This document shows, piece after piece, positions 1 to 48,523 of a stretch of DNA of 64,000 nt. The stretch covers positions 705,319 through 769,318 of the forward strand of contig CAZVTT010000001.1 in the NCBI GenBank assembly GCA_964629685.1, read 5' to 3'. A program made the position numbers and the translations under genes. The notes beneath the pieces are model-generated. The model was not told the origin of the DNA and ran no database searches. It worked only from the letters and a program-made list of their open reading frames with translations. The stretch's first letter is position 1. Each line of letters begins with the position of its first letter. The DNA comes from an uncultured Gammaproteobacteria bacterium (lineage in GTDB: Bacteria > Patescibacteriota > Microgenomatia > UBA10105 > UBA927).

Positions 1-1
1 C

Positions 2-1297: not shown

Positions 1298-1302
1298 AAT
1301 AA

Positions 1303-4597: not shown

Positions 4598-4598
4598 A

Positions 4599-10194: not shown

Positions 10195-10206
10195 AGGCGT
10201 AGTAAT

Positions 10207-10956: not shown

Positions 10957-10957
10957 A

Positions 10958-11401: not shown

Positions 11402-11486
11402 AAGCGAAAACACCGATTATGTTCTTAATAAATACAATAAACAGAGTCGTAGAAAGAAGACACTGGTTATTACTATAAGATTATTT

Positions 11487-11495
11487 GTGTCGCTA
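11487..11495 (-). promoter_or_regulatory. Extended -10 element (TGgTATAAT) for the minus-strand operon that begins at 11401
   Basis: The reverse complement of 11487-11495 reads TGGTATAAT. It sits in a 125-nt gap between two minus-strand genes. Confidence 0.35.
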
Positions 11496-11539
11496 AATTA
11501 TACCAGTTTTGTGTAGAGAAAGAAATATAGACTACGTTT

Positions 11540-13443: not shown

Positions 13444-13472
13444 TTGACAGGATATGTGAGGAATGATACAAT
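13444..13472 (+). promoter_or_regulatory. Sigma70-type promoter: -35 TTGACA, 17-nt spacer, extended -10 TGaTACAAT
   Basis: TTGACA occupies 13444-13449. TGATACAAT occupies 13464-13472. The spacer is exactly 17 nt. It lies immediately upstream of the HTH gene and the large plus-strand operon. Confidence 0.55.
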
Positions 13473-18490: not shown

Positions 18491-19552
18491 ATGAAAAACC
18501 AACAAAAACCACCGGTAGAAGCGTCCATGATCACCAAATTATTTTCCGTGGTGTGGGCTCAATTCGGATTAGTTTGGGATAAGGCCAGGGGTATAGTCGT
18601 GGTGCCACATTTGCCTGACAGAGTAGAAGGATATCAATTTGTCCGGAGAATTCAGCCGGAAAAATCCGGCCCGATTGCCGTCGGCGTCTACGTGAACAAC
18701 CGCGGTGAACAGATTGCCGTAAAAGTGTGGGAAGGGCGATATAAAACCCGGGCGTATTTCGAAACAATACACGAAATTATTACCGTGTGGACGTTAAACC
18801 AGGTGGCTAAACGCGTGCATTTACGGATTCCGGCCGCCATTCGCCATGTAAACGTACCGAACGTGGTGACGTTCGAAGTTGCACCCCAAAAATTATTACT
18901 GGCCACGGAATGGAGTCATGGTGATTTATTTAAGACCGCAACTCCACAACAGCAGATTTCGTTATACGAACAGTGCCGGCAGTATTTTACGGCCTTATCC
19001 GCACATATTACTCCGGCGGAGCGCCGGGTATTCGGAGATAAAACCCGGAATTATATTTTCTGGTTATATCCGGCAATAATTCTGACTGCCTGCTTCCGGC
19101 ATCCGGAACTGATTCCGCCTATTCTGGGCGGTGCCATGAATACATTAAACGGGTTTAGGTATTTGGCCTCGGAGTTGGAACAGGGACTGGTGCATGGTGA
19201 TTTACACGGAAATAACGTGTTGTGGAATCAAAAAGAAACGGTGATTGTCGATACGGCGAACGTGATGTGGAGTTATACCATAATAGAATATTTAGCGACG
19301 TTGGCCTCTCCGTTAACCCCGAAAGCCCTGGAGGAATATGTAGCCATGACCGTGCGGGACCAGGTAAATAAAACGGTAAAACAGCGGGTAGCCGGAAAAT
19401 TCATATCTGCATTTATCGGTATATTCGACCTGACCATCAGACTTACGCCGGCGCATATGAACGCAGCATTACGGTTGGTGCGGGGAGAGTATTTCCCGAA
19501 TACCGTCACGGCGTTGCCGACAGCATCGAAAGTAAAACAGGTACGGGTTTAA
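18491..19552 (+). CDS. Protein-kinase-fold phosphotransferase (APH/Kdo-kinase-like); a putative glycan or small-molecule kinase
   Basis: IAVKVWEG provides a VAIK-like lysine. HGDLHGNNVLW is a Brenner/HRD-like catalytic loop. IVDTANV is a DFG-equivalent. Confidence 0.5.
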   Translation: MKNQQKPPVEASMITKLFSVVWAQFGLVWDKARGIVVVPHLPDRVEGYQFVRRIQPEKSGPIAVGVYVNNRGEQIAVKVWEGRYKTRAYFETIHEIITVWTLNQVAKRVHLRIPAAIRHVNVPNVVTFEVAPQKLLLATEWSHGDLFKTATPQQQISLYEQCRQYFTALSAHITPAERRVFGDKTRNYIFWLYPAIILTACFRHPELIPPILGGAMNTLNGFRYLASELEQGLVHGDLHGNNVLWNQKETVIVDTANVMWSYTIIEYLATLASPLTPKALEEYVAMTVRDQVNKTVKQRVAGKFISAFIGIFDLTIRLTPAHMNAALRLVRGEYFPNTVTALPTASKVKQVRV

Positions 19553-19554
19553 CT

Positions 19555-20271
19555 ATGAACTTAAAACAAATACTATTCTCATCACCCCTATTTTCTTTAT
19601 TCGGGAAGGTGGTGCGTATGCTAAAGCCGAAATCATCCTTTCGGCTGGGTACAAAAACGACTATACCGTTAAGCACAAAATACGGATTGGATCGGGGTAC
19701 ACCGGTAAACCGATATTGGATAAAAAAAGCTATAGCGTTATGGAAATCCGATATCAGGGGAACGGTACTGGAAATAGGCGACCGCCGTTATACGTCCGAA
19801 TTTGGTGGGCAGGCAGTTAAGCGGTCGGATATCCTGGATATAGTAAAAACAAACTCGGCTGCCACTATTATCGGCGATCTGCGGAATGTAAAAAAACAAA
19901 TTAAGAACAATACCTACGACTGTATTATCCTGACGCACGTATTGGGGATGATAGATGATTATTCTGCGGCCATCCGGGAATGTCACCGGATACTTAAACC
20001 GGGTGGAGTATTGCTGGTTACCGTAGCCGCGTTTAGCCCGGTACTTGAACAGGCAAGCTCGTACTGGCGATTTACCGAGGCAGGTGCCAAATATGCATTC
20101 TCAGGTGTGTTTTCGAAAACAACAGTACAAAGTTACGGAAACGTATACAGCGGACAGGCATTTTGGGTGGGAATGTCGCAGGAAGAACTCACGCGGGAAG
20201 AGCTTGATTTTGACGATGAGCGGTATCCCTGTGTCATTGCCATTCGGGCGGTGAAGGAGGACAACGTATGA
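19555..20271 (+). CDS. Class I SAM-dependent methyltransferase
   Basis: VLEIGDRRYTSEFGG is a glycine-rich motif I. LKPGGVLLVTV is a post-motif II feature. Confidence 0.55.
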   Translation: MNLKQILFSSPLFSLFGKVVRMLKPKSSFRLGTKTTIPLSTKYGLDRGTPVNRYWIKKAIALWKSDIRGTVLEIGDRRYTSEFGGQAVKRSDILDIVKTNSAATIIGDLRNVKKQIKNNTYDCIILTHVLGMIDDYSAAIRECHRILKPGGVLLVTVAAFSPVLEQASSYWRFTEAGAKYAFSGVFSKTTVQSYGNVYSGQAFWVGMSQEELTREELDFDDERYPCVIAIRAVKEDNV

Positions 20272-21194
20272 AGGCGTCCTTAAAAACCGTGACGGTAATA
20301 ATTCCGGCGCATAATGAGGCCGGCCAATTAAAAGACTTGCTTGGGGAAATACTTCAGCAAAAGCTGGTAAGCGGTGTGCTGAAGAAAATAATCGTATATT
20401 CGGACGGCAGTACTGACGGGACGGTTGCAGTGGTGAAGGGCCTGAAGGATTCCCGTTTGGAACTCCTGGTAGGAAAAACACAAAAAGGCAGAGCCGTCAG
20501 ACAAACACAGATGATGCAGACATGTACGTCTGATATTCTGATATTGCTGGATGCCGATATTGTCCTTACGGACGTAAATACCCTGGAACACCTGATTAAG
20601 CCTATTAGCACCGGAAAGGCAGAGCTTACTGCTGCGGCTATCCGGAATTTACCCCCTCAGACCTGGATAGAAAAAACGCTTTCCGCCAGTATGGAGCTGA
20701 AACATGAAATTTTCGCGTCGTGGAAGCAGGGAATAAATATATACAGCTGCACCGGACCGGCCAGGGCTATGGCTAAAACGTTTTACCGCAGTCTGCGGTA
20801 TAGTCATAGTGACGGGGAAGATATGTATACGTATTTGTCCTGCGTGAGTAAGGGGTTTCGGTTTGTGCCGGTACCATCATCCGTCGTGTATTACCGTCTG
20901 CCCACTAATCTGGCGGATTACTTTAAGCAATCGAAACGGTTTATATTTGCTCCCCAATATCTGTACGCTGAATTCGGAGAACACGCCGTACGCCGCGAAT
21001 TTGCAATACCGATATTTCACTCCGTCATTTGTTGCCTGAAAGCGGCACCGGGTATGTGGCACAAGGTGGGATATGTGTTGTCATACGTACTGGTTTTAGT
21101 AAGCAGCAGAATATTGAGTACATTCCGACCGAAGGTATCGGAAACCTGGCAGGCAAGTTCAACCAAAACGGTACGGGCGGGAGGGGCGGTATGA
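20268..21194 (+). CDS. GT2-family glycosyltransferase
   Basis: VTVIIPAHNEAGQLKDLLGEILQQ...LLDADIVL. The start ATGA-overlaps the upstream stop. Confidence 0.55.
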   Translation: MKASLKTVTVIIPAHNEAGQLKDLLGEILQQKLVSGVLKKIIVYSDGSTDGTVAVVKGLKDSRLELLVGKTQKGRAVRQTQMMQTCTSDILILLDADIVLTDVNTLEHLIKPISTGKAELTAAAIRNLPPQTWIEKTLSASMELKHEIFASWKQGINIYSCTGPARAMAKTFYRSLRYSHSDGEDMYTYLSCVSKGFRFVPVPSSVVYYRLPTNLADYFKQSKRFIFAPQYLYAEFGEHAVRREFAIPIFHSVICCLKAAPGMWHKVGYVLSYVLVLVSSRILSTFRPKVSETWQASSTKTVRAGGAV

Positions 21195-22012
21195 ACTGGC
21201 GGAGGAGACAGGTACTGCTGGCGGTATTTCGGGTCGTACGGTCCGGTATTTATCGGAGTTTGGCAACCTGGGATAAAGTGTGGGGAAATCAGAACCCGCT
21301 GGCTATATATTGTTATCACAGTATCGGCGATGACTGGCGGTTTAGCGTGCGGCAGTCCGAATTAAAAAAACAGTTATTTTACCTGGCCGGGCAAGGTACA
21401 CCCGTAACGCTTTCAGACGTCGAAGCCTACCTGCAGGGACGCAAAGAACTACCCCGACCGGCATTTGCCATTACGTTTGATGACGGCTATGCCGATATAT
21501 TTGAAAGCAAACACCTCTTTCGGCGGTTGGGGATTCGGCCGACTGTTTTTGTATTAAGTGACCGTAAGGCCGCCAACAGAAATATACTGGCCACCGAAAA
21601 GCCGTTACTTGAACCGGTGCAGATTAAATCATTGCGGAAATCGGGTTGGTACATAGGTTCACACAGCGCCACGCACAGCGTACTCACGAATTTAAATAAA
21701 GACAGATTACGGCACGAAATAACCGATTCCAAGCGGAAATTACAACGGATGATAGGTGCACCGGTGCGGTTTTTTTCCTATCCCAAAGGGAAATATTCCA
21801 ATTCGGTGATAGAAACTGTCAACCGGGCGGGGTACACCATTGCCGTATCCATGGATGACGGATTAATAGGGCGGGATACTTCCCGGGTACACGTACCCAG
21901 AATAGGCGTTGATCAGACACACAGTTTTTCGGAGTTTACTACCCTGGCTTCACCGTCTGTGGTGGCGTTCCGGAATATGGTAAAGCGTTCTGCCTTCGGT
22001 AAATACGTATGA
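21191..22012 (+). CDS. Polysaccharide deacetylase (NodB homology domain, CE4)
   Basis: AITFDDGYADIFE and IGSHSATHSVLTNL give the TFDDG and H-x-x-x-H motifs. The start was set at the ATG at 21191, which ATGA-overlaps the upstream stop; the track ORF at 21029 would overlap the previous gene by 165 nt. Confidence 0.65.
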   Translation: MNWRRRQVLLAVFRVVRSGIYRSLATWDKVWGNQNPLAIYCYHSIGDDWRFSVRQSELKKQLFYLAGQGTPVTLSDVEAYLQGRKELPRPAFAITFDDGYADIFESKHLFRRLGIRPTVFVLSDRKAANRNILATEKPLLEPVQIKSLRKSGWYIGSHSATHSVLTNLNKDRLRHEITDSKRKLQRMIGAPVRFFSYPKGKYSNSVIETVNRAGYTIAVSMDDGLIGRDTSRVHVPRIGVDQTHSFSEFTTLASPSVVAFRNMVKRSAFGKYV

Positions 22013-23196
22013 AACAAAAACAGATACATGCCGTTGTGAAATATTTTTATCCGGTGGCAGCCGGTATAGAAACAAACATGCTGGAAACGTACAGCGTGTT
22101 GGTACAACGCGGCTGGAACGTAACCGTACACACGTCTACGAACACCCTTACGGAAGAGAACATATTACCGTCAGCGGAAGAGGTTCGCGGTATCCAAGTA
22201 CAAAGGTATCGGTACAACTGGTGGAGTTTCTGGCCGCAGTTACCCTGGGATAGTGCGGATGTGATCGCTCTGCACAATTTTAATGTTATTCCCCACGGGT
22301 TTTTATTATTCTATGCCTGGTGGCGGAAGATTACCGGTAAACGCGTACCCGTGATGATTCTTACTCCACACGGCGGGTATACCCCTGACTGGTTAATATT
22401 CCATCCGGTAGTGGCTTGGGCAAAGCGAATGTATCACGCGACGGTGGGTCTCTGGTTGATCAGGATGGCCTTAAATGGTATCCGGGCTGTGTCTGAGTGG
22501 GAACGGTTGGAAATAGCCGGTATGGGCGTTCGTACGGCCTTAATCCGGGTAATTGCCAATGGGATAGAAGACGAAGCCTACGGAAATGTAGATCACGAGG
22601 CCGGTGATCGGATTAAAAAACGAGTGAAAGGGTTCGGGAAATACCTGATTCAGATAGGCAGAATTTACGATATAAAAAATTACGAAACGGTATTGCAGGC
22701 GTTAACACAAATGCCTGCGGATATTAACTTTGTAATTGTCGGGCCGGTGGGAAGTAATGAGTATTTAGCATCGCTCAAACGGTTGATTGCGGATCTGCAT
22801 CTGGAAAATAGAGTGTTTTTTGCCGGCGTCGTGCGCGGCTATGATAAATACTACCTCATCAAACACGCTGCCATGATGGTCCATATGGCACGTTGGGAAA
22901 GTTTCTGTAATGCCGTACATGAAGGCATGAGTCAGGCTCGTGTGTGTATCGTGGCAGATAATACGGCGCTGAGATTTTTGGTGGAAGACGGGATAAACGG
23001 GTATCGGGTTCCGACTACAGACAGTACGGCATTGGCAAATAAAGTGCTGTATGTACTGGATAAAAAACATGCAGCAGAAATAACCAAAATTACGGCTACG
23101 GCTAAGAAATTTGCTCTGGCACACTCCTGGAAAAACGTGGCCATAACTATCGAATCCTGGTTAATTGATTTACTGTCGGAAAAGGAGCGGAAATGA
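22009..23196 (+). CDS. GT4-family glycosyltransferase
   Basis: 395 aa. The N-terminus HAVVKYFYPVAAGIETNMLETYSVLVQRGWNVTVHT is GT-B-like. A C-terminal GT4-like region is present. The start ATGA-overlaps the upstream stop. Confidence 0.5.
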   Translation: MKQKQIHAVVKYFYPVAAGIETNMLETYSVLVQRGWNVTVHTSTNTLTEENILPSAEEVRGIQVQRYRYNWWSFWPQLPWDSADVIALHNFNVIPHGFLLFYAWWRKITGKRVPVMILTPHGGYTPDWLIFHPVVAWAKRMYHATVGLWLIRMALNGIRAVSEWERLEIAGMGVRTALIRVIANGIEDEAYGNVDHEAGDRIKKRVKGFGKYLIQIGRIYDIKNYETVLQALTQMPADINFVIVGPVGSNEYLASLKRLIADLHLENRVFFAGVVRGYDKYYLIKHAAMMVHMARWESFCNAVHEGMSQARVCIVADNTALRFLVEDGINGYRVPTTDSTALANKVLYVLDKKHAAEITKITATAKKFALAHSWKNVAITIESWLIDLLSEKERK

Positions 23197-24089
23197 AATT
23201 AACGCGGACCATTACCATAGGGATTCCGGCATACAACGAATCAGCCAATATTGTAAAACTGATTGAGGCAGTACAGGCTCAAAAGTTGTCCGGCTTCAGC
23301 ATAAAAGAAATATTGGTCATTTCGGATGCTTCAGAAGATAATACGGATTCACTGGTCCGGTCGGTGCATGATTCCCGGGTCAAATTGTTCCGGAATCGTA
23401 CCAGGCAGGGGCAATCATTGTCGCAAAATATACTGTTAAAAAAGGCTACCGGTGACGTACTGGTATTACTGAATGCCGATACGCTTCCTGCAAATCCGTA
23501 TGCAGTTCAAAAACTGGCCGAAACGATCATGGATGGCGCGGATTACGCTATTGCCCGGGCTTGGCCGGTAGCGGCACGTACCTGGTTTGAACGGGTCATT
23601 AATTACAGTGTGTATTTGCGGACGGCCATTTTCGAACGGTTTCCAAATTATGACACCATTTATTTGTGTGGCGGCCGGGGCAGGGCTATGAGTCAGCGGC
23701 TGTACCGTAAGTTCCGCTGGAAGAAAGTGTTTACGGAAGACGTTTTCGCGTTTCTTTACTGCAAAAAATACGGGTTTAAAACCCAATATCAGCCGAAATC
23801 GGTCATTCTTTTCCGATCGCCAATAGACTGGCATGATCACAGCAAGCAAAGTCGTCGTTTCCGAGCCGGGCCGGAAGAACTGTTTCCGTATTTTGGCGAA
23901 GAAACGGTGCGTCAGTCATTTAAACTCCCGCTATCCGTAGCCGTGCCACCTATCCTTTTTTACCTGTTGCGGCACCCGTTGTGGTCTTTGGCTTACCTAA
24001 GCGTCTATCTGTTTACTAAATTGGCAGCTCCCCCACAAGCTACCGCCACGTGGTCGGTGTCTACGTCATCGAAGGGGCTAACATCATGA
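23193..24089 (+). CDS. GT2-family glycosyltransferase
   Basis: ITIGIPAYNESANIVKLIEAVQAQ...VLLNADT. Confidence 0.55.
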   Translation: MKLTRTITIGIPAYNESANIVKLIEAVQAQKLSGFSIKEILVISDASEDNTDSLVRSVHDSRVKLFRNRTRQGQSLSQNILLKKATGDVLVLLNADTLPANPYAVQKLAETIMDGADYAIARAWPVAARTWFERVINYSVYLRTAIFERFPNYDTIYLCGGRGRAMSQRLYRKFRWKKVFTEDVFAFLYCKKYGFKTQYQPKSVILFRSPIDWHDHSKQSRRFRAGPEELFPYFGEETVRQSFKLPLSVAVPPILFYLLRHPLWSLAYLSVYLFTKLAAPPQATATWSVSTSSKGLTS

Positions 24090-25303
24090 AAGCACCCTTT
24101 GTATTTATTCCGAATGTAACTACTCCTACAAACCTGGGTGATGCTGCAATGTACAAAAGTCTCCGGGAGTTGATTAGACGGGCTTTTCCGCAGGCCAGGG
24201 TGGCAATCGGTACCGGCGATCCGCAATTGCAGACTGATACTACGGTCAAAAAGCAGTTAAGTGTGTTCGATTGGATGATTATGGACAGGCGTGATCCGAT
24301 TACCCGGATAATTCGGATGCTCTGGGTAAGCCTGTACTATGTAAGCTATGTTTGGCGAATGCCGTGGTTACGGCAGAATAAAGCCTTAAGTGATTTGCTG
24401 GTCTCGTATGAACAGGCAGATCTGGTTGTTACCGTTGGATGCGGGTTTCTACGCGCCAGACCGGGAATATCACAGGCGATTAATCTGTTTTTGGTTTTAT
24501 TCCTATTTCGCTTTGCCAAAGTACTGAAAAAGCAGGTAATTGTATCTCCGTTGAGTTTCGGCCCCTTTGCCTACGAGTGGGAAGCCAGGATGTGCGCACA
24601 GGTATTAGACGGATTTACCGTGGTAGGCGCCCGCGAAGAATATTCGTATATGGCCATGCAGAAATATGGAGTAAAAAATGTGGTTTTATCCTGTGACCAG
24701 GCGCTGCTATTGCCAAAACGCAAAGGGAATCAGTCTAAGCGTCCGGTGGTGGGGTTTGTGATCCGTCCGTGGCTACCTTTGGAAGGTCAGAATAGTCTGG
24801 AAAAGGCTTATGCTCTTGCACTCTTTTCACTGCAGCAAAAAACGGATGTTGAATTGTTACCGATTGTGCAGGTGCAGGCTCCGTACGCTCAAAAAGAAGA
24901 TGATTCCGTGGCTTTGGCTCGGGTTGTTAGCACTCTTGATATGCTAGGTGCTAGAGTGCGGAAGCCCATAATTTTACGTGATATTTCACACGCGGAAAAG
25001 ACATACGGAGCAACCGTGTTAGTTTTGGGTATGAGGATGCATGCAAACATAATTTCTGCCACTCAATACGTGCCGTTTGTGGCAATTGCCTATGAATATA
25101 AAACACAGGGCATAGCCGGGACGTTAGGGATGAACGATTTTGTGTTACCGTGTGAAGATGTAACTCCGGAAGTACTGAGCGGATTATTGGAACGGGCATT
25201 CAGACAACGGACGGCGTTACGGACCAGGATAAAAAGCCGGGTACTGACACTGCAGCGAACGGAAACGGAGAAATGGGTGCGAATTCTGAGGGCTGCCTTA
25301 TGA
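24086..25303 (+). CDS. Polysaccharide pyruvyl transferase (CsaB/WcaK-like)
   Basis: MKAPFVFIPNVTTPTNLGDAAMYKSL, with its N-x-GD-A motif, is typical of the PS_pyruv_trans family. The start at 24086 is preceded by GAAGGGG and ATGA-overlaps the upstream stop. Confidence 0.5.
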   Translation: MKAPFVFIPNVTTPTNLGDAAMYKSLRELIRRAFPQARVAIGTGDPQLQTDTTVKKQLSVFDWMIMDRRDPITRIIRMLWVSLYYVSYVWRMPWLRQNKALSDLLVSYEQADLVVTVGCGFLRARPGISQAINLFLVLFLFRFAKVLKKQVIVSPLSFGPFAYEWEARMCAQVLDGFTVVGAREEYSYMAMQKYGVKNVVLSCDQALLLPKRKGNQSKRPVVGFVIRPWLPLEGQNSLEKAYALALFSLQQKTDVELLPIVQVQAPYAQKEDDSVALARVVSTLDMLGARVRKPIILRDISHAEKTYGATVLVLGMRMHANIISATQYVPFVAIAYEYKTQGIAGTLGMNDFVLPCEDVTPEVLSGLLERAFRQRTALRTRIKSRVLTLQRTETEKWVRILRAAL

Positions 25304-26199
25304 CCACACCACATCCAAGCATAACCATCGGTATACCCACTGTTTTGGCTGGTAAGCATTTGGTTCGGACGGTGGCGTCCATTTTCGAACAAACGATCCC
25401 GGTGAGTGCCGCGAGCGTAAAGATAATGTTGGACGGACAACCTATGCCGGTAAGTACGCTGAGAGCCCTTTCTCCGGAAATCAGAGTCAGAAAAACAGCT
25501 TCCCGTCAGGGACAATCCGCTAAATTAGATGATTTATTGGCGACCTCCCGGAGTGAATTGATTATTTCTACCAATGACGATGTGGTGTGGGCTCAAAATG
25601 CGCTGGAGCGGATTTATGCTGTGAGGCAATCCTCCCGGGCGGATTTAATCTGTGTCGGCGTGCGTCCGCTTCCTGCGCATACGGTTATGGAGAAGATACT
25701 ATCTGTCGGTACGGATATAAAAAATGAGGTCATACGCCGAACGCCGGGTCAGCAAACGTACCTGGTGTGTAACGGTAGATTGCTTGCGGTTTCCGCAAAG
25801 TTAGCTTCAAAAATGCGGGTTCCGTATAACATTTGGAACAATGACGCATTTATGTATTTGTTTGCCAAGCGAAACGGGTTTACCGTGGCGTATATAGACG
25901 AACCACTTTGTGCGTTCCGTGATCCTGCAACGCTTAAGGAGTATATCTTACAGACACTGAAATTTCAGCAATCCCGAAAGGAAAATGAGGCTGTTTTTGG
26001 TCCGCTGGGTAGCGAATATAGTATACCCATGAAGGTCAGAATACCGGCAATATTTGCCGTATTACGGAAGCGCCCGTGGTGGGGGAGCATTTATTTGGTT
26101 TTGTATCTTATTACCCGCTTGGTAGCAGTAGTGGTACCGCTTCCACAAAAACACAAACCATACTGGCCTATAGACATGAGTACGAAAGAGTTGGATTAG
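25300..26199 (+). CDS. GT2-like glycosyltransferase
   Basis: SITIGIPTVLAGKHLVRTVASIFEQT...ISTNDDVV. The start at 25300 ATGA-overlaps the upstream stop. Confidence 0.45.
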   Translation: MTTPHPSITIGIPTVLAGKHLVRTVASIFEQTIPVSAASVKIMLDGQPMPVSTLRALSPEIRVRKTASRQGQSAKLDDLLATSRSELIISTNDDVVWAQNALERIYAVRQSSRADLICVGVRPLPAHTVMEKILSVGTDIKNEVIRRTPGQQTYLVCNGRLLAVSAKLASKMRVPYNIWNNDAFMYLFAKRNGFTVAYIDEPLCAFRDPATLKEYILQTLKFQQSRKENEAVFGPLGSEYSIPMKVRIPAIFAVLRKRPWWGSIYLVLYLITRLVAVVVPLPQKHKPYWPIDMSTKELD

Positions 26200-26287: not shown

Positions 26288-27820
26288 ATGAAAATAGGTC
26301 TATTTGGTCCGACCGCAAACGGAGGACAACATCGAAAAGGTAGTCGTCTGCGCTTCGGTGAAATCCTTACCATTAACCATCTACTTGGTGGCGTGTTTGT
26401 GCTGCTGCTCCTTTTGCTGAAAGGAACGTTCGGTTCCGGATTACAGCAGGCTACTACGCTTTCCACACCAGGAAATGCTTTTGAATCATCCATCGTGCGG
26501 GGCAGGTATGCGTTAACGCTCAGTCTGGCAGAAAACGGTGCGTTTACGTTTTCCCGGCCTATCGCTGAATTTGCCGCCCCGGATGTAGCGTATCTCGGGC
26601 AAGGTAAATTTGCTTCCATGTTCCCTCCGGGAATAGGCGTGCTGGCAGTTCCGTTTTATGTGGTGGGCAGAATGGCCAATGCCGGACAGTTAGTGACCAT
26701 GTCTCTGCCCTTACTGCTTACGGTTTTAAACGTATTTTTGCTTTTCCGGGTATGCCGCGCTTTTGGATTTGATCAGGCGGTGAGTGCTCTCACCGGGTTA
26801 ATCGTTACCCTGGGGACGGCGGTTTTGCCGTACAGTACGCAGTTGGTACAGCACCAGGTGGCTCTGGCCGTAGTGTTGGGGATGATGCGGGTAAGTTTAC
26901 TGCCGCAAACCATTCGCCGCAGAATATTGTTGTGGGGTATAGCATCCGCATCCGTGGTGTTTGACTGGCCTAATGCAGTGCTGGTGCTGCCGTTTTTGCT
27001 GTTGGATATACGAAATATGGTGGTAAGGCACGGAAAATTCAGCCTGCAGACAATGCTGCGGGATATACTTTTTCTGTTTTCTGCCGTCGGTGTCCCACTC
27101 ACCGGATTTGCCATATATAACTCTATTGCTAACGGAAATCCGTTTCAGATCGGTCAGTTTGCTCCATCCGTAACCCAGTTCCCAAATCCTTTTTCCTGGT
27201 TGTGGGCTCTACTATTTAGCCACATCGGCGCAGCGTTTCAGTTTACCAGGATTCCTTTCGGGTTGTGGGTACTGGGTGGGAGTACGGAACGGGGAGTATT
27301 ATTTTTTGCTCCCGTTATGTTGCTTTCGTTGCTTGGTATTATGTCGCTCTGGAGAAAATACCCGATCGTTGTAACTGCGCAGATAACCAGCATCGCTTTA
27401 ACATTGGGTTTGTATAGTTCTTTCGGTGACGTCTGGGGCGGGGCTGCATTCGGACCACGGTACCTCATTCCGGTTTTCGGCCTGGCTGCTCCTTTTTTGG
27501 CTAGTGCGCTGCACACCTGGCGGAAAACCCGTTGGTTTACAGGGATACTAAGCGTTACGTTGCTTTGGAGTGTCGGCATAAACATGCTGGGTGCTGTAAC
27601 GACGGTACTGCTACCTGGTGCGGAAGATTTGGCCACCGGCGGTTTGGGATCTACGCTTTTACCCGCCTGGGAAGTTCTGGCTACCGGACAGATGGGTTCT
27701 TTTCTGTATCGTCTCGGGTTACAGTATATAGTGCCGGGTATTGGATTCTACGGTTTTATGCTGGTACTCGCGTTGGGACTAATAGTACCTGTTTGGTTGG
27801 CTGTTTTTACCGATAAATGA
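26288..27820 (+). CDS. Polytopic GT-C-type membrane glycosyltransferase (PMT_2/ArnT-like); paralog of the next gene
   Basis: About 12 TM segments. The first loop reads RGRYALTLSLAENGAFTF...FPPGIGVLAVPFYVVG. It is clearly homologous to the 27817 product. Confidence 0.45.
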   Translation: MKIGLFGPTANGGQHRKGSRLRFGEILTINHLLGGVFVLLLLLLKGTFGSGLQQATTLSTPGNAFESSIVRGRYALTLSLAENGAFTFSRPIAEFAAPDVAYLGQGKFASMFPPGIGVLAVPFYVVGRMANAGQLVTMSLPLLLTVLNVFLLFRVCRAFGFDQAVSALTGLIVTLGTAVLPYSTQLVQHQVALAVVLGMMRVSLLPQTIRRRILLWGIASASVVFDWPNAVLVLPFLLLDIRNMVVRHGKFSLQTMLRDILFLFSAVGVPLTGFAIYNSIANGNPFQIGQFAPSVTQFPNPFSWLWALLFSHIGAAFQFTRIPFGLWVLGGSTERGVLFFAPVMLLSLLGIMSLWRKYPIVVTAQITSIALTLGLYSSFGDVWGGAAFGPRYLIPVFGLAAPFLASALHTWRKTRWFTGILSVTLLWSVGINMLGAVTTVLLPGAEDLATGGLGSTLLPAWEVLATGQMGSFLYRLGLQYIVPGIGFYGFMLVLALGLIVPVWLAVFTDK

Positions 27821-29403
27821 TTATGAAGCTACTCGATCACATACTTATCGGTCTTGGAAAATTGACGGTAGCGTTATTACCGGTAATTTTGCTGCTCGCC
27901 ATGGGTATGGCGTTTTACGGTGTGACGCTGCGGGGTATTGCCGGTAAACCGGACATCGCTGCGGTAAAAGATAATTTAGACCAGGCAACACAACCCTTTG
28001 AACTTTCTCCGGAACGGGGTAGGTATGCAATTATTGTGTCTCTGGCAGAAGATGGTACCTTTTCGCTCCGTCCTGACTTGGGCATGATGGTGTATCCAGA
28101 CGTAGGATATTACAACGGTAAATTTTACTCTTACTTTGCTCCCGGTATATCCGTGTTTGCTCTGCCGTTTTATCAGTTGGGTTTACTGTATAACCTTCCT
28201 CAGGTAGCGGCATATGCATCAGTTGCCGTAACCGCAATACTTAATTTGGTTTTATTGTACGTAATCTGTCGGTGGGTGTTCCGGTTACCCCTTTGGGCAA
28301 GTTTGGCTGCACCCATTATTTTCGGTTTTGGAACCACATCCTGGAGCTATGCCATTACGCTCTATCAGCATCAAATGACCACGTTCTTAATATTAAGCAG
28401 TTTTATGGCGGTATGGAAAATTACCCAGGGAACCCGTTGGAATCCGATACTCGCGTCCTGGGTTTGGTTTGCCTTCGGGTTTGCCGTGTTTATTGATTAC
28501 CCCAATGTGTTGCTGATGGCTCCCGTGATGTTGTATTTTGCCTGGAGTCTATTTGAGCGGGTAAACATAGTCGGAAAAAAGCTGACGGTAACCATCCGTC
28601 CTTCGTTACTGCTAACATCTGTGGTATTAATTACCTGGATATTTGTACATGGGTATTACAACCAGGTGAACTTCGGCAGCTGGAAACGGGTAAGCGGCAG
28701 CTTGGTGGGATACAAATCGATTCTGGAAAAAGATCTGCAGAATCAGGAAAATCCTGAGGCTGTCATCGAAGGGGAAAAGGGCGAAAAAAATCCGGTTAAA
28801 TTCTTCTCTGAGGAAAAAACGCCTTTCGGCTTTTATACCTTACTCTATTCGGAAGACCGCGGACTATTATTGTACGCACCGATATTGGCCGTAGGTATTC
28901 TCGGGCTATTCTGGGCTGCCCGGCAAAAAAATGCTGCCATGAGCGCCTTAATCGGATCAGTAGGGGTAAACGTGTTTCTGTATTCCAGTTGGGGAGATCC
29001 TTGGGGTGGTTGGGCTTATGGACCGCGGTATTTGATTCCGAGCATGGCATACTTGTCTGTTTTCGCCATGCTGTGGCTGGTGCACGGTAAATGGCGACCG
29101 TTCTTCCGGATTATCTCCTGGCCATTGTTTGGATTTTCCAGTGCCGTTGCTTTACTGGGTGCGCTGACGACCAATTCGGTACCGCCGAAAGTGGAAGCCG
29201 ATTATTTAAAAACCGGGTATAACTTTTTCCGTAATTTGGATTTTTACCTTGACGGACGAAGCGGCAGCTTTGCACTGCGCGAATATTTATGGCCGTACGT
29301 TACTCTGGGTCAGTTATTCGGATATATCTGGTTATTTTTACTGGTGATAATGTTTGTGTTGTTGATCGTTATGCCGTTATTCCGGAGGCGAAATGGACAT
29401 TAA
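27817..29403 (+). CDS. Polytopic GT-C-type membrane glycosyltransferase (PMT_2/ArnT-like); paralog of the previous gene
   Basis: ERGRYAIIVSLAEDGTFSL...FAPGISVFALPFYQLG parallels the corresponding loop of the 26288 product. Its ATG at 27817 lies immediately upstream of the previous gene's TGA at 27818-27820, so the two ORFs are out of frame; the exact start/stop junction could not be pinned down. Confidence 0.45.
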   Translation: MIMKLLDHILIGLGKLTVALLPVILLLAMGMAFYGVTLRGIAGKPDIAAVKDNLDQATQPFELSPERGRYAIIVSLAEDGTFSLRPDLGMMVYPDVGYYNGKFYSYFAPGISVFALPFYQLGLLYNLPQVAAYASVAVTAILNLVLLYVICRWVFRLPLWASLAAPIIFGFGTTSWSYAITLYQHQMTTFLILSSFMAVWKITQGTRWNPILASWVWFAFGFAVFIDYPNVLLMAPVMLYFAWSLFERVNIVGKKLTVTIRPSLLLTSVVLITWIFVHGYYNQVNFGSWKRVSGSLVGYKSILEKDLQNQENPEAVIEGEKGEKNPVKFFSEEKTPFGFYTLLYSEDRGLLLYAPILAVGILGLFWAARQKNAAMSALIGSVGVNVFLYSSWGDPWGGWAYGPRYLIPSMAYLSVFAMLWLVHGKWRPFFRIISWPLFGFSSAVALLGALTTNSVPPKVEADYLKTGYNFFRNLDFYLDGRSGSFALREYLWPYVTLGQLFGYIWLFLLVIMFVLLIVMPLFRRRNGH

Positions 29404-30982
29404 TCTGAGCTGGATGCTTTCTATTGCAGAAAGACTAAAACGGTGGGCGCATGCACGGCCCGGGCTGTTTTTTGTACTGACACCTGCCATAAGTACGGCG
29501 GTGGTTAGTACACTGTATTTCCTGATGCAGGATACCATCGTGGCCTACGGGGACGCGGAATCGCATTTAAATATTGCCAAACGGGTTATTCATAGTATTA
29601 CCCCCGGTATTGCCCAGCTGGGAGGCATCTGGTTACCACTGCCGCACGTGATGATGGTGCCGTTCGTTGCCATAGACGCATTGTGGCGTACTGGCTTGGC
29701 CGGATCAATTGTTTCCGGTATGTGTTATCTGATTGCGGCAGTATTCCTGTACAAATTAGCCATGCTGGTGATCGGAAACAAATGGGCGGCGGTGCTTACA
29801 TCACTCGTATTTGTATTTAATCCCAATATTATGTATTTGCAGGCGACGTCCATGACGGAGCTGCCGTTAATCGCATTTTTTACATTATCCAGTTATTTCT
29901 TTATAAAATATCTGAAGGGTAAACAGCCGTTATACTCGCTGGTGTTGGCAGCATTCTTTGGATTTTGCGCCGTTTTGTCCCGCTATGATGGTTGGTTTTT
30001 GGTTCTTTTTGAGTCTTTGATTATTGGGATTCAGGGTTTTGTATTGCGTTGGAAATGGAAAAAAATAGAGGGTAGCGGAATTTTGTTCGTGACCTTGGCG
30101 TTCTTCGGTATTCTGCTCTGGCTATTGTGGGGACAGCTTATTCTGGGGAATGCGCTATATTTTACGCAAAGTCAGTTTAGTGCCCAGACCCAGCAACGGG
30201 CCTGGCTTGCCAAAGGTGAATTACCGGCGTATCACAATGCCTGGTTGGCAGCAGCATATTATTTTGTGACGGCGATGGGTAATGCCGGAATTTTATTGTG
30301 GTTTGTGGCTATCGCGGGTTTGATAGTATATTTGCGCCGGGGGACAGACAGAAAAAGATTTTTAATAGTGTTATTGCTGATGGTGCCGTTTCTGTTTAAC
30401 TTTGTAACCTTATTCATGGGGCAGTCGGTAATTTTTATACCGCACCTGACACCCGTGTCTTTTGAATGGCGGTTATTTAACGTACGGTACGGTGCCATGA
30501 TGATTCCCGTGGTCGCGTTTTTTATCGGAACGTTATTCAGCAGAGCCTCAAAATTCGGAAAAGTAGTTATACTGGGTTTGTTTATGGCGCAATTTGGATT
30601 ATTCGGAATCGGATATACCAATGTCATTAGTTATGCCGATGGTGTAGTAGGGTTATCCCATGCCAAACGGCCTGACGCCGAGCAATGGATGAAACAACAC
30701 TATGACGGCGGACTGGTACTTTTGGATGACTATGCACGTACCATGAGTATTATCCGGGCAGGCATTCCGATGCAGAATGTAATATATATTGGGAATAAGC
30801 CGTATTGGGAAGAGTCATTGCAGGACCCGGCCAAATATGCGGTATGGATCGTAATGCAGAAAGATGATGCCGTGTGGACGAGTTTAATAAACGATAAGGC
30901 AGTAGAAGGCAGACTTTACGCAACATTTGAAAAAGTTTATACTTCCCCGGAAATTCTCATTTTTCGCCGTCAGGAAAAATAA
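29393..30982 (+). CDS. Polytopic GT-C-type membrane glycosyltransferase (GT39/PMT_2-like)
   Basis: 529 aa and very hydrophobic. The N-terminal loop reads IVAYGDAESHLNIAKRV. Confidence 0.45.
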   Translation: MDINLSWMLSIAERLKRWAHARPGLFFVLTPAISTAVVSTLYFLMQDTIVAYGDAESHLNIAKRVIHSITPGIAQLGGIWLPLPHVMMVPFVAIDALWRTGLAGSIVSGMCYLIAAVFLYKLAMLVIGNKWAAVLTSLVFVFNPNIMYLQATSMTELPLIAFFTLSSYFFIKYLKGKQPLYSLVLAAFFGFCAVLSRYDGWFLVLFESLIIGIQGFVLRWKWKKIEGSGILFVTLAFFGILLWLLWGQLILGNALYFTQSQFSAQTQQRAWLAKGELPAYHNAWLAAAYYFVTAMGNAGILLWFVAIAGLIVYLRRGTDRKRFLIVLLLMVPFLFNFVTLFMGQSVIFIPHLTPVSFEWRLFNVRYGAMMIPVVAFFIGTLFSRASKFGKVVILGLFMAQFGLFGIGYTNVISYADGVVGLSHAKRPDAEQWMKQHYDGGLVLLDDYARTMSIIRAGIPMQNVIYIGNKPYWEESLQDPAKYAVWIVMQKDDAVWTSLINDKAVEGRLYATFEKVYTSPEILIFRRQEK

Positions 30983-32235
30983 TGAACTATCTTTTGTTTC
31001 TTTTTATCGTGTGCGGTTTGCTTCTGAAACCTGCACAGGTTTTTGCAGCTGAACGTTTTTGGCCGATAGTATCTATAGATACCATGAAATATTCCCGGGA
31101 CAGAGCCCGCGAGTCGGGAATGAGAGAGCAGATACCGGCGTATATTACCGCGGTGGCGGCACTTCAGCCCACTCATATAGCGATAGGGACTCCCTATGAT
31201 GAAGAATTTTATCCTGTGATGAAGGTTTGGGTTGACGAAATCAGAAAGCAGAACATGCATGTTTGGTTCCGGGGTAATTTTTCCGGATGGGAGGGGTGGT
31301 TTGATTATCCGAAATTAAAATCGGTGGCGGAGCATCATATAAAAACCCGGGCTTTTATTGAGAAGCATCCGGATTTATTTGAAAATGGGGATATTTTTAC
31401 TCCGGCTCCGGAACCGGAAAATGGTTTGATCCGGGATCCAAGGCATGCAGACGGTAATAAAACGGAGTTCTTAAAATTCTTGACGGATTCATATAGTACC
31501 TGTGCTACAGCTATGAAAAAAGTCAAAAAGGATGTGCGCTGCGGATATTTTTCCATGAACGGAGACGTAGCCAGGGAAATAATGACCAAAGAGGCGGTGG
31601 CTTCAAGCGGCGGTGTGTTGGTTATAGACCATTACGTAAAGGAACCGGAGAAATTAGTGAAGGATGTGGAGTTTTTGTATGAAAAATACGGGTATCCGGT
31701 GGTGTTGGGGGAATTCGGGGCACCAATTCCCGACATAAACGGCAATATGACTCCTGAGCAGCAATCCGGGTATATTACGGATGTGCTTACCGGATTGTTG
31801 CGGTTAAAAGAAAAAGTCGGCGGTATGAACTATTGGACCGCTTTTGACGGTACTACGCAGCTCTTTCAGAAAGATTTAGTTGCCAGACCGGCTGCCAGCG
31901 CCCTTTCACTCATGTATAAACCTTCGGTGTTACGCGGTACGGTAACCGATCAATTCCATGCACCGCTTAAAGATGTGACGTTAATGGTGGCCAAGGGAGC
32001 CGTAACCGTAAAAACGAATGCTGACGGTGTATACGAATTGCCATTACCGAATTTAGTCACAAAAGTAGTAGTTTCTCCTCCTGATGAGACTTTGGTGGCA
32101 GGCGTGGTTAACGTAGAGCTGGAAACCAGAAGCGATATGGAACGGAATATTATTTTAAGCAGGACGGATAACAGTTTTTATGGTCGGGTTGTGCGCTTTT
32201 TACGAAATTTTGTGGCTAAAATACTATCTCAGTAA
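30982..32235 (+). CDS. Secreted clan GH-A-like glycoside hydrolase with a C-terminal beta-sandwich (CarboxypepD_reg-like) domain
   Basis: A signal peptide is present (MNYLLFLFIVCGLLLKPAQVFAAE). PAPEPENG is a candidate acid/base motif. VVLGEFGAP is a candidate nucleophile motif. The C-terminus reads GTVTDQFHAPLKDVTLMVAKGAVTVKTNADGVYELP. Confidence 0.4.
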   Translation: MNYLLFLFIVCGLLLKPAQVFAAERFWPIVSIDTMKYSRDRARESGMREQIPAYITAVAALQPTHIAIGTPYDEEFYPVMKVWVDEIRKQNMHVWFRGNFSGWEGWFDYPKLKSVAEHHIKTRAFIEKHPDLFENGDIFTPAPEPENGLIRDPRHADGNKTEFLKFLTDSYSTCATAMKKVKKDVRCGYFSMNGDVAREIMTKEAVASSGGVLVIDHYVKEPEKLVKDVEFLYEKYGYPVVLGEFGAPIPDINGNMTPEQQSGYITDVLTGLLRLKEKVGGMNYWTAFDGTTQLFQKDLVARPAASALSLMYKPSVLRGTVTDQFHAPLKDVTLMVAKGAVTVKTNADGVYELPLPNLVTKVVVSPPDETLVAGVVNVELETRSDMERNIILSRTDNSFYGRVVRFLRNFVAKILSQ

Positions 32236-33220: not shown

Positions 33221-33286
33221 AGGGTAAAGGCAAAGTGCAATAAAATCTACTGTTTTAGCCTCAATTATTTAGGCCTATAGCGCCTA

Positions 33287-33314
33287 TTGCTTTTTGTTCT
33301 TTGTGTGCTATAAT
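33287..33314 (+). promoter_or_regulatory. Putative promoter: -35 TTGCTT, 16-nt spacer, extended -10 TGcTATAAT
   Basis: TTGCTT occupies 33287-33292. TGCTATAAT occupies 33306-33314. It is preceded by a weak hairpin (TAGGC...GCCTA, 33270-33286) and a T-rich run, which may act as a terminator for the upstream gene. Confidence 0.35.
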
Positions 33315-33347
33315 ACATCTCTATTGTATAAGTTATAGGACACAATT

Positions 33348-37566: not shown

Positions 37567-37581
37567 CAAACCGGTGAATTC

Positions 37582-48396: not shown

Positions 48397-48523
48397 GTAT
48401 TTCACCTCCTTTCCGATTACCATGAGCCCATCATAAAACGGTAAACTGAATTTTTGCTTAATCATTAACCTTGCGCACTTGTCAGTTTGCTGTATTGCTG
48501 CAGACTCACGTATAATTGGCGGT

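Follow-up and report, generated by a model that had tools for sequence, protein, structure and literature searches.

Gene Organization of the Locus

Positions 18491–26199 of the window (the whole stretch of DNA that was analyzed, 64 kb in length) comprise eight tightly packed genes (Table 1). As already noted in the sequence-only reading, seven consecutive ORFs between 19555 and 26199 are joined by 4-nt ATGA start/stop overlaps; direct reading of the sequence shows one terminal stop in each ORF and places the six junctions at 20268, 21191, 22009, 23193, 24086, and 25300. The kinase gene at 18491 is separated from its neighbor on either side by a gap of 2 nt. Alternative start codons are present upstream (TTG 21029, GTG 24050, and ATG 25273). 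The ATGA starts are nevertheless supported, since independent gene calls yielded the same protein lengths and since all six junctions are retained, despite differing flanking bases, in the related locus L002, which carries the same eight genes with protein identities of about 57–90%. In case of the kinase gene the start is ambiguous: gene callers picked M13 (18527), and L002 retains both of the possible ATGs.

Overlaps of 4 nt occur at 15 of the 48 same-strand junctions in the window and are a habit of this genome. For a run of at least six overlaps among the window junctions a permutation probability of 0.014 was obtained, and therefore the run is modestly non-random; that L002 has kept it carries more weight. 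Translational coupling between the block genes is plausible, and the overlaps would keep the enzymes of the block co-expressed. The candidate promoter, situated in a 616-nt divergent intergenic region, is likely the start of the transcription unit, as judged from its match to the consensus. The functional unit probably exceeds the eight genes considered earlier and extends from 13698 to about 32235.

Table 1. Features of the locus with position in the window, strand, and supporting evidence.
Feature	Position	Strand	Evidence
Best sigma-70-like promoter match, TTGACA-17-TACAAT with extended TG	13444..13472	+	11/12 matches, consensus match only
Double GT2, 764 aa	13698..15992	+	Pfam/NCBIfam profiles, motifs, homologues
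MOP-fold domain and GT4, 830 aa	15996..18488	+	Pfam, AF2 model, Foldseek
APH/protein-kinase-like phosphotransferase, 353 aa (341 aa from ATG 18527)	18491..19552	+	Pfam, model, catalytic residues
Class I SAM-dependent methyltransferase	19555..20271	+	Pfam, homologues, fusion to kinase in P0068
GT2 glycosyltransferase GT2a (DAD95)	20268..21194	+	Pfam, motif, synteny
CE4/NodB-type polysaccharide deacetylase	21191..22012	+	Pfam, NCBIfam, motifs
GT4 glycosyltransferase (E297-x7-E305)	22009..23196	+	Pfam, NCBIfam, motif, synteny
GT2 glycosyltransferase GT2b, paralogue of GT2a	23193..24089	+	Pfam, homologues
Polysaccharide pyruvyl transferase, 405 aa	24086..25303	+	Pfam, CsaB model, homologue survey
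Divergent GT2, GT2c	25300..26199	+	Pfam 30.1 bits, C-terminal hydrophobic anchor aa 260-283
Polytopic membrane protein MEM1	26288..27820	+	Weak match to LA_3751/LA_3752 family
Polytopic membrane protein MEM2, MEM1 paralogue	27817..29403	+	Retained in every CPR locus examined
PMT_2 (GT-C) membrane glycosyltransferase-like protein MEM3	29393..30982	+	Conserved in CPR loci
Secreted 417-aa protein, signal peptide and CarboxypepD_reg domain	30982..32235	+	Closes conserved locus

Enzyme Families and Catalytic Motifs

Pfam HMM searches confirmed the earlier assignment of a SAM methyltransferase, a NodB deacetylase, a pyruvyl transferase, and four glycosyltransferases (three GT2 and one GT4). The GT2 matches reached 66 bits (20268), 79 bits (23193), and a weak 30 bits (25300), the GT4 match at 22009 80 bits, and the PS_pyruv_trans match at 24086 117 bits. 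The deacetylase (Polysacc_deac_1, 82.8 bits) contains the motifs TFDD95, HSATH158, and RFFSYP193, and the methyltransferase (Methyltransf_23/11, 39 bits) belongs to a large uncharacterized family with an atypical motif I (LEIGD). The protein-kinase-fold phosphotransferase proposed at 18491 was recovered by an APH match of 27.4 bits (cut-off 23.2), limited to aa 224–289, with the catalytic residues K78, H235, D237, N242, and D254 intact; its structure model (pLDDT 93.6) has an APH-type fold that matches APH and AmiN in Foldseek. Neither a signal peptide nor an N-terminal transmembrane segment was found in any of the eight block proteins.

The two genes upstream of the block encode multidomain proteins. 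In the product of 13698, the N-terminal GT2 domain resembles ArnC/DPM1 polyprenyl-phosphate sugar synthases, and the second one, which bears TED531 and QRSRW568 and ends in transmembrane helices, resembles a processive synthase. The product of 15996 combines a C-terminal GT4 (148.6 bits) with an N-terminus of about 12 helices adopting a MOP-superfamily (Wzx/MurJ/MATE) fold, of which the AF2 model (aa 1–440, pLDDT 83.9) matches MATE, WzxE, and MurJ at TM 0.6–0.7 in Foldseek. Downstream of the block, the family matched by MEM1 comprises putative, GT-C-like glycosyltransferases.

The sequence-only reading had predicted a phosphorylated, O-methylated, N-deacetylated, and pyruvylated heteropolysaccharide. 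Enzyme families and catalytic motifs speak for a tailored heteroglycan, but O-methyl and phosphate as two independent marks are uncertain; the methyltransferase may act on a hydroxyl, an amine, or a phosphate.

Microsynteny in the CPR

The host belongs to the Patescibacteria (CPR), which are tiny, uncultured bacteria, and is not a Firmicute. Syntenic relatives of the locus occur in Saccharibacteria and Woesebacteria. The protein encoded by 13698 shares 58–60% identity with Saccharibacteria loci, and in most CPR relatives it is fused with the product of the next gene, resulting in giant fusions of 1348–1593 aa. In Woesebacteria, the order kinase, methyltransferase, GT2, deacetylase, GT4, GT2 is repeated. 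In detail, the loci of CP066693.1 (L008), L012, and L094 start with a giant GT2-GT2-MOP-GT4 fusion, the kinase (sometimes two), and the methyltransferase, followed by a GT2 (except for L094), the deacetylase, the GT4, further GT2 genes, and membrane proteins; the secreted CarboxypepD_reg protein ends the array in the two loci with a long enough contig, L008 and L012. Among the block proteins, the GT4 of 22009 is the most strongly conserved in CPR loci, with E values of 1e-118 to 1e-135 in L005, L008, L009, and L012. The block represents a polysaccharide operon of ordinary enzyme families in an uncharacterized CPR setting.

GT2a adjoins the deacetylase in CPR loci, and in L005 both are fused with the MEM2 membrane protein into a single protein. 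There the deacetylase has a GT2 on one side and a polytopic membrane domain on the other, which makes its topology ambiguous. The CE4 enzyme is replaced in L092 and L009 by a PIG-L de-N-acetylase that is not homologous to it, and de-N-acetylation is therefore argued to be a conserved requirement of the pathway. The pyruvyl transferase gene is missing from the otherwise collinear loci L005, L008, L009, and L012 as well as from L092, and only 8 close homologues were found; judged by gene content, it is a lineage-specific accessory gene that occurs in only some CPR loci.

In all four kinase-seeded loci with enough flank, the methyltransferase is located directly downstream of, or fused to, the kinase. 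The fusion protein P0068 combines a kinase-family protein with a methyltransferase that shares 48% identity with that of the window, along the entire length of the latter. Further members of the kinase family are fused to a MOP domain (P0126, P0136, P0101, and P0114; E values down to 1e-88), to a GT4 (P0135), or to a GT2a-like GT2 (P0038 and P0133). These fusions to methyltransferase, flippase domain, GT4, and GT2 argue for one membrane-associated assembly line and raise the hypothesis of a WbdD-like methyl-phosphate tag.

Proposed Pathway and Alternative Explanations

The region 18491–26199 probably encodes the enzymes that assemble and tailor an envelope glycoconjugate at the cytoplasmic face, as one block of a locus that is conserved across the Patescibacteria. 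From the observed protein families and folds, the preserved catalytic motifs, the syntenic gene order, and the fusions found in nature we infer the order of the reactions, their substrates, the lipid carrier, and the identity and role of the end product as follows. At the inner face, the glycosyltransferases of 22009, 20268, 23193, and 25300 and the GT4 half of 15996 would build a lipid-linked oligosaccharide, from which the CE4 deacetylase would then remove an acetyl group, most likely the N-acetyl of a hexosamine, and to which the pyruvyl transferase would add a pyruvate ketal from PEP. The APH-fold kinase would phosphorylate a sugar hydroxyl with ATP, and the methyltransferase would transfer a SAM-derived methyl group, possibly to the phosphate introduced by the kinase. 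ATP, SAM, PEP, and nucleotide sugars, the co-substrates of the block, are cytoplasmic. The MOP-fold domain of 15996 would flip the finished intermediate across the membrane, and outside the GT-C-like proteins of 26288, 27817, and 29393 would extend or transfer it. It speaks against this pathway that an initiating phosphoglycosyl transferase of the Bac_transf or MraY/WecA type was found neither in the 64-kb window nor in related loci.

It is tempting to speculate that kinase and methyltransferase together would place a methyl-phosphate at the non-reducing terminus of the chain as a chain-terminating or export-licensing tag, similar to the terminators WbdD of E. coli O9a and Klebsiella O3 (chemistry described in PMC3482155) and ORF6 of Klebsiella O7. 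This sub-hypothesis, compatible with the proposed pathway, is possible but rather doubtful. As in these systems, there is a genetic link between a kinase and a class I methyltransferase: the genes adjoin with a 2-nt gap, the order is the same in all four informative loci, and the fusion P0068 occurs at the same position in the same locus type. Furthermore, the kinase shares the APH/AmiN-like fold, AmiN being the structure that the O7 terminator kinase is reported to resemble most in fold (PMC11231755), and the kinase–MOP flippase fusions of other genomes, which distinguish this family from WbdD and ORF6, would fit an export checkpoint. However, no sequence similarity of the pair to WbdD or ORF6 was detectable, WbdD is absent from the top 50 Foldseek matches of the kinase, the kinase model lacks a coiled-coil ruler, and the domain order of the fusion (kinase, then methyltransferase) is reversed. 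The window contains no ABC transporter, with or without a carbohydrate-binding module. Outside the CPR, the methyltransferase family usually occurs without a kinase (16 of 17 well-flanked loci) and is linked to a deacetylase instead. Of the 17 methyltransferase loci flanked on each side by 3 kb or more, 12 (e.g., L019 and L067) have a same-strand CE4 homologue no farther than 3 kb away, in most cases abutting, and this methyltransferase-deacetylase(-GT2) group recurs well outside the CPR. It would suit a Nod-factor-like route, in which a GT2 adds HexNAc, the CE4 enzyme exposes the amine, and the methyltransferase N-methylates it, comparable to NodC, NodB, and NodS and independently of the kinase. 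The three gene types lie side by side, the deacetylase, which has no signal peptide, is presumably cytoplasmic, GT2a and deacetylase are fused in L005, and both GT2 and deacetylase weakly match the NodC and NodB models. Such a route is unlikely, since these matches are far below the cut-offs, the GT2s are not NodC equivalogs, the methyltransferase is unrelated to NodS at the sequence or profile level, and an acyltransferase is missing; moreover, gene linkage alone cannot tell which atom is methylated.

CsaB pyruvylates the secondary cell-wall polymer for the anchoring of SLH proteins in Bacillus anthracis and Paenibacillus alvei. The sequence-only reading had suggested a ligand of this kind, i.e., a pyruvylated secondary cell-wall polymer of which the ketal would bind SLH-domain surface proteins, but nothing tested supports this Firmicute-style anchor, which we consider quite unlikely. 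A genuine PS_pyruv_trans domain is present within an envelope-glycan locus of a monoderm-like bacterium, among curated NCBIfam models CsaB comes closest to it, ahead of WcaK (97.7 and 38 bits, respectively), and some Patescibacteria encode 8–10 SLH proteins (bioRxiv 10.1101/2024.03.08.584096). Nevertheless, the score is below half of the CsaB equivalog cut-off (213.1), and SLH domains were detected by HMM neither in the 50 window ORFs nor in the ten flanking ORFs scanned in L003/L004, nor among precomputed matches around L090/L091. Genes for ManNAc supply or transfer, MnaA (Epimerase_2) and TagA (WecG), are missing from the 64-kb window, a sortase signal (LAATG) is present in the neighboring surface protein, the host is a CPR bacterium, and the pyruvyl transferase is an add-on dispensable in collinear loci. 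Very unlikely, finally, is a synthase-dependent route to a PNAG-, chitin-, or cellulose-type exopolysaccharide, in which the product of 13698 would polymerize and export a homopolymer that the CE4 enzyme would partly deacetylate in the manner of PgaB or IcaB, whereas the remaining genes would serve a different glycan. The processive-synthase motifs of 13698 would fit such a polymer better than the flippase route, the protein has a C-terminal membrane domain, its best NCBIfam matches are PgaC/IcaA (109.8 bits) and CelA, and the deacetylase matches the PgaB and IcaB models. All these scores are, however, far below the equivalog cut-offs (PgaC: 422), and the deacetylase has no signal peptide. In most relatives a single polypeptide contains the synthase, the MOP domain, and the GT4, and the block follows directly in conserved order, which argues for one pathway.

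Comparison to Other Glycan Systems

In actinobacterial PIM/LM/LAM and eukaryotic GPI biosynthesis, cytoplasmic GT4 steps and de-N-acetylation are followed by flipping and by GT-C enzymes using polyprenyl-phosphate sugars. Similar to these systems, the locus unites a DPM1/Ppm1-like GT2, GT4s, a flippase, several GT-C-like proteins, and a de-N-acetylase (CE4, or PIG-L in relatives) without a classical phosphoglycosyl transferase. The likeness is one of logic only, with homology at the superfamily level at most, and implies no inositol chemistry.

With the Wzx-type capsule and exopolysaccharide operons, e.g., B. subtilis eps with EpsO and colanic acid with WcaK, the locus shares a long co-directional array of GT2 and GT4 genes, a pyruvyl transferase, a MOP flippase, and overlapping stop/start codons. 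In contrast to these operons, no phosphoglycosyl transferase, recognizable Wzy polymerase, or chain-length regulator was found here, the flippase domain is fused to a GT4 and in relatives also to the synthase-like GT2, and GT-C-like proteins occupy the position expected for the polymerase.

Conserved locus architecture and domain fusions

Judged from the neighbourhood comparison, the eight tailoring genes at 18491-26199 belong to one variant of a conserved CPR system, with a predicted functional unit that extends from 13698 to approximately 32235. The recurring CPR locus consists of three parts, i.e., a giant GT2-GT2-MOP-GT4 protein of 1348-1593 aa, which is split into 13698 and 15996 in the window, a variable tailoring block, and a membrane part with one to three GT-C-like proteins followed by a CarboxypepD_reg protein. 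Two Saccharibacteria MAGs, the only matches in a pattern scan of GTDB species representatives with the pyruvyl transferase, are syntenic with the window in the flanking core genes. In case of Woesebacteria CP066693.1 and the homologous locus L012, the block comprises kinase, kinase, methyltransferase, GT2, deacetylase, GT4, GT2, and GT2 genes, which corresponds to the order in the window minus the pyruvyl transferase.

Members of the kinase family of 18491 occur in different genomes as fusions to a methyltransferase (protein P0068), a MOP domain, a GT4, and a GT2 like 20268. The MOP part of the kinase-MOP fusions is homologous to the corresponding half of 15996, with E-values down to 1e-88. 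Further fusions are listed below. In the homologous loci L092 and L009, a non-homologous PIG-L de-N-acetylase takes the place of the CE4 enzyme, which suggests de-N-acetylation of a GlcNAc-type residue as a required step of the pathway. Taken together, the gene fusions and the PIG-L replacement support the view that the locus proteins form a single membrane-associated assembly line. Domain shuffling within the CPR locus is extensive. The fusion in L005 leaves the topology of the deacetylase ambiguous.

Promoter-like site of the window and gene fusions in homologous CPR loci
Feature	Length (aa)	Location	Coordinates	Strand	Remark
Candidate promoter-like site, strong		window	13444-13472	+	consensus match; upstream of 13698
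Synthase + MOP-GT4 fusion	1348	L004	1422-5468		
Pyruvyl transferase + GT2 fusion	711	L003	9995-12130		
GT2 (like the 20268 product, GT2a) + CE4 deacetylase + membrane protein fusion	1106	L005	12221-15541		
GT2 + PIG-L deacetylase + membrane protein fusion	1096	L092	8642-11932		

Two genes on the same strand, 13698 and 15996, precede the block. The former codes for a double GT2 protein with an ArnC/DPM1-like and a processive-synthase-like domain (Glyco_trans_2_3, 77.6 bits). The product of 15996 ends in a GT4 domain, and its N-terminal 440 residues are predicted to adopt a MOP-superfamily transporter fold, with MATE, WzxE, and MurJ as Foldseek matches (TM 0.6-0.7). A second flippase is encoded at 53932 (Polysacc_synt_3, 176.6 bits). 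Downstream of the block, where a Wzy-type polymerase might be expected, 26288 and 27817 encode polytopic proteins with no Pfam match and weak matches to the putative glycosyltransferases LA_3751/LA_3752; they are followed by the polytopic membrane protein 29393 (PMT_2, GT-C) and the secreted CarboxypepD_reg protein 30982. A MOP flippase is shared with Wzx/Wzy assembly, but an initiating phosphoglycosyl transferase was not found, as neither Bac_transf nor Glycos_transf_4 had a match in the window or the related loci.

Gene run and enzyme assignments

Seven genes from 19555 to 26199 are chained by six 4-nt overlaps, with the ATG placed on the preceding TGA, at 20268, 21191, 22009, 23193, 24086, and 25300. 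Both the list of ORFs and the junction sequences themselves thus bear out the ATGA-coupled run proposed by the sequence-only reading. The kinase-like gene 18491-19552 is separated by a 2-nt gap from its neighbour on either side. Upstream alternative starts are possible in three genes (TTG 21029, GTG 24050, and ATG 25273). These longer ORFs were rejected in favour of the ATGA starts, because protein lengths are the same in independent gene calls and both junctions and lengths are conserved in L002, a relative of the window with proteins approximately 57-90% identical, in which all six ATGA junctions are kept and the flanking nucleotides differ. The kinase gene starts at 18491 or at 18527; L002 retains both ATGs. 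Fifteen of the 48 same-strand junctions of the window show the 4-nt overlap, and for a run of at least six, permutation gives a probability of 0.014. The run is genuine and departs modestly from chance, with compact gene packing as a genome-wide habit here.

Pfam and NCBIfam agree with the proposed methyltransferase, NodB deacetylase, pyruvyl transferase, and four glycosyltransferases. In detail, 19555 encodes a class I methyltransferase; 21191 is a CE4/NodB deacetylase (Polysacc_deac_1, 82.8 bits) with Asp-His-His metal triad motifs TFDD95, HSATH158, and RFFSYP193; 24086 matches PS_pyruv_trans (PF04230) over aa 16-337 with 117 bits (cut-off 25.3); 20268, 23193, and 25300 are GT2 enzymes, the latter with a weak match; and 22009 is a GT4 enzyme with an E-x7-E motif. 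None of the eight block proteins carries a signal peptide, and a C-terminal hydrophobic anchor is present in 25300 only. As the co-substrates of these enzymes are cytoplasmic, tailoring must precede export.

The kinase assignment was examined further by family, residues, and model, since the Pfam APH match of 18491 is marginal (27.4 bits vs the gathering cut-off of 23.2) and confined to aa 224-289; relatives score up to 67 bits. An exhaustive HMMER search yielded a family of 282 cluster representatives. Among 64 aligned members, K78, H235, D237, and N242 never vary and D254 is kept in at least 90%, and the catalytic set of 18491 is complete (beta-3 Lys, HxD loop with downstream Asn, metal-binding Asp). 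The AlphaFold (AF2) model shows a bilobal kinase fold (pLDDT 93.6) with APH(3'), APH(9), APH(4), and AmiN as best Foldseek matches (E approximately 1e-8, TM 0.4-0.55), i.e., it resembles aminoglycoside, spectinomycin, and hygromycin phosphotransferases and the amicoumacin kinase AmiN. The Pfam score above cut-off, the catalytic residues, and the predicted fold uphold the earlier assignment: 18491 is, as modelled, a bona fide APH-fold kinase, probably active and of the type that acts on small-molecule or sugar hydroxyls. Sequence and profile searches of the PDB with the kinase, the methyltransferase, and the MOP domain returned generic matches alone, without a specific functional family; a single-sequence search with the pyruvyl transferase returned no match. 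Two kinase paralogues occur in tandem in the Woesebacteria locus (6212-8001) and in L012 (8093-10002); the window has one. Tandem copies, or two kinase domains joined in one protein, were also seen in the relatives P0003, P0004, P0005, P0007, P0014, P0050, and P0056.

Named homologues of the methyltransferase belong to Woesebacteria, Microgenomates, WWE3, and 'PAT' bins. Kinase and methyltransferase genes adjoin each other, and in P0068, which sits precisely at the position of both genes in a locus of the same type, the methyltransferase part is 48% identical to 19555 over its full length. A universal kinase-methyltransferase pair was rejected, as the methyltransferase usually occurs without the kinase outside CPR loci.

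Candidate chemistries

The coupling of kinase and methyltransferase, by adjacency and by fusion in P0068, suggests that the two enzymes may install a methyl-phosphate tag by analogy with WbdD, which makes a methyl-phosphate cap (PMC3482155), and with Klebsiella O7 ORF6, whose kinase is likewise AmiN-like (PMC11231755). The usual lack of a kinase beside the methyltransferase family outside CPR argues against this analogy, as does the missing resemblance to WbdD itself: no WbdD chain was present in the phmmer and profile PDB results for the kinase and methyltransferase queries or among the top 50 Foldseek matches of the kinase model, the model of 18491 contains no extended coiled coil that could serve as molecular ruler, and the scanned window ORFs gave no ABC_tran or ABC2_membrane match, whereas WbdD is served by an ABC transporter with a carbohydrate-binding module that reads the cap. 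A phosphocholine route via a LicA-like choline kinase and a phosphoethanolamine N-methyltransferase was set aside, given that the window holds no LicC/LicD and PMT matches of the methyltransferase are marginal. In L019, a non-CPR locus, LicD lies next to a homologue of the methyltransferase. For methyltransferase, deacetylase, and GT2, a logic resembling that of NodC/NodB/NodS is conceivable by analogy, as a CE4 deacetylase lies near the methyltransferase, usually abutting, in 12 of 17 well-flanked loci (at least 3 kb on both sides; CE4 counted within 3 kb on the same strand). In non-CPR loci, mostly from soil metagenomes, a CE4 deacetylase and a GT2 usually come directly after the methyltransferase (L019, L067, and 10 others in L018-L080). 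In one locus the neighbours of this group include LicD and an FkbM methyltransferase, and in another an ABC exporter. The three genes give the impression of a portable cassette.

A PNAG-like synthase route is conceivable as well. With TED531, QRSRW568, and a membrane domain, 13698 shares the processive-synthase motifs (TED, QxxRW) of PgaC/BcsA-type enzymes, but equivalog level is not reached for either PgaC_IcaA (109.8 bits, cut-off 422.3) or CelA (87.7 bits, cut-off 699.1). The proposal that a CsaB-type pyruvylated wall polymer anchors SLH proteins is, on present evidence, the weakest of these four narrower ideas. In its favour, SLH proteins are present in some Patescibacteria (bioRxiv 10.1101/2024.03.08.584096). 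However, 24086 stays below the cut-off of the CsaB equivalog TIGR03609 (97.7 bits vs 213.1) and is an accessory gene, missing from collinear CPR loci. Furthermore, no SLH domain was detected in 50 window ORFs, ten flanking ORFs of L003/L004, or the precomputed matches around L090/L091, and a ManNAc acceptor pathway (MnaA, i.e., UDP-GlcNAc 2-epimerase, a TagA/WecG-type ManNAc transferase, and TagO) left no Epimerase_2, Glyco_tran_WecG, or Glycos_transf_4 match in any scanned window ORF; such genes may be present in other parts of the genome. The neighbourhood holds a sortase and its LAATG substrate. Neither the SLH-anchoring nor the Firmicute framing of the sequence-only reading is supported, and a Firmicute origin was rejected because the nearest genome-derived loci are those of the Saccharibacteria MAGs and assemblies of Woesebacteria and other CPR are collinear.

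Proposed pathway and significance

Assembly and tailoring inside, flipping by the MOP domain, and finishing by GT-C proteins outside is the best-supported account, for which we infer the step order, substrates, and lipid carrier. A lipid-linked oligosaccharide would be built at the cytoplasmic face and tailored there by deacetylation, pyruvylation, phosphorylation, and methylation; the MOP domain would then flip the intermediate over the membrane, and GT-C-like proteins would extend or transfer it outside.

It is tempting to speculate further that Patescibacteria share an undescribed pathway for an envelope glycoconjugate and that the block represents its cytoplasmic half, although as a whole we consider this reading unlikely. 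Such a pathway would dispense with a classical phosphoglycosyl transferase at its start. A GT4 step followed by de-N-acetylation, the logic of GPI, PIM, and mycothiol synthesis, would be used, possibly with a lipid scavenged from the host as acceptor. The kinase-methyltransferase pair would tag the intermediate, and the fusion of kinase and MOP flippase in several genomes suggests that methyl-phosphate might act as a 'ready for export' mark. GT-C enzymes would finish the product after flipping and, if true, the pathway would lead to a lipoglycan-like surface polymer of these epibiotic bacteria.

CPR/Patescibacteria live attached to host cells, and surface chemistry is therefore central to their biology. 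The locus recurs across distant CPR classes, constant in its core and variable in its tailoring block, and is therefore a concrete candidate for the main surface glycan of CPR that lends itself to testing. The fusions connect the kinase family, so far uncharacterised, with flippase and methyltransferase, and they raise the question whether methyl-phosphate tagging extends beyond the O-antigen systems of Gram-negative bacteria. Taken singly, the enzymes come from large and familiar families, and polysaccharide operons with tight overlaps are nothing unusual; less ordinary are the CPR setting, the flippase-glycosyltransferase fusion (with the kinase in relatives), and the apparent absence of a classical initiating transferase. 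According to a 2017 genome paper, envelope formation and structure were still unclear for all CPR studied (PMC5220378), and our literature searches returned nothing specific on the locus, on pyruvylation in Saccharibacteria, or on CPR glycan clusters.

Other features of the window

Taken as a whole, the window (64 kb) is a glycan island. A separate glycan cluster at 1-13081 (minus strand) is divergent from 13698-64000 (plus strand) and encodes GT4, GT14 'Branch', PMT_2, GT2, DUF2206, double GT4, and GH5/39-like hydrolase proteins. At approximately 1-10 kb the G+C content is 0.30-0.34, compared with 0.43-0.49 from 14 kb on; the cluster of low G+C may stem from horizontal transfer or represent a hypervariable region for surface glycans.

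Downstream of the glycan locus (32327-34992), 32327 and 33348 encode secreted paralogues with a common N-terminal AAPDG-GPWAD domain. The latter, located directly upstream of the sortase gene 34231, contains an fn3 domain, and its C-terminus consists of an LAATG signal, a hydrophobic stretch, and charged residues, in this order. The glycan locus of L090 is likewise followed by the same pair of secreted protein and sortase, so that the sortase system would seem to belong to the conserved neighbourhood.

In the rml operon (37093-38793), the RmlC-like ORF 37093 (157 aa) also matches Polysacc_synt_C and is followed by 37582 (403 aa), which has no Pfam or NCBIfam match. Due to the 85-nt overlap of the RmlB-like ORF 38709, as listed, with 37582, its true start is probably located further downstream. 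Between 43076 and 60894, small DPM1/GtrB-like GT2 genes (43076 with a GtrA domain, 45911, and 53232) repeatedly adjoin genes of large GT-C-type membrane proteins (PMT_2 44238 and 48479, GT87 46670, PTPS_related 51590, and YfhO 58546), which implies several extracytoplasmic glycosylation systems using polyprenyl-phosphate sugars. The sole minus-strand ORF of at least 150 aa in the plus-strand region (47881-48534) has no family match and overlaps the start of the listed 48479 ORF; it may be a spurious call, or the start assigned to 48479 may be wrong.
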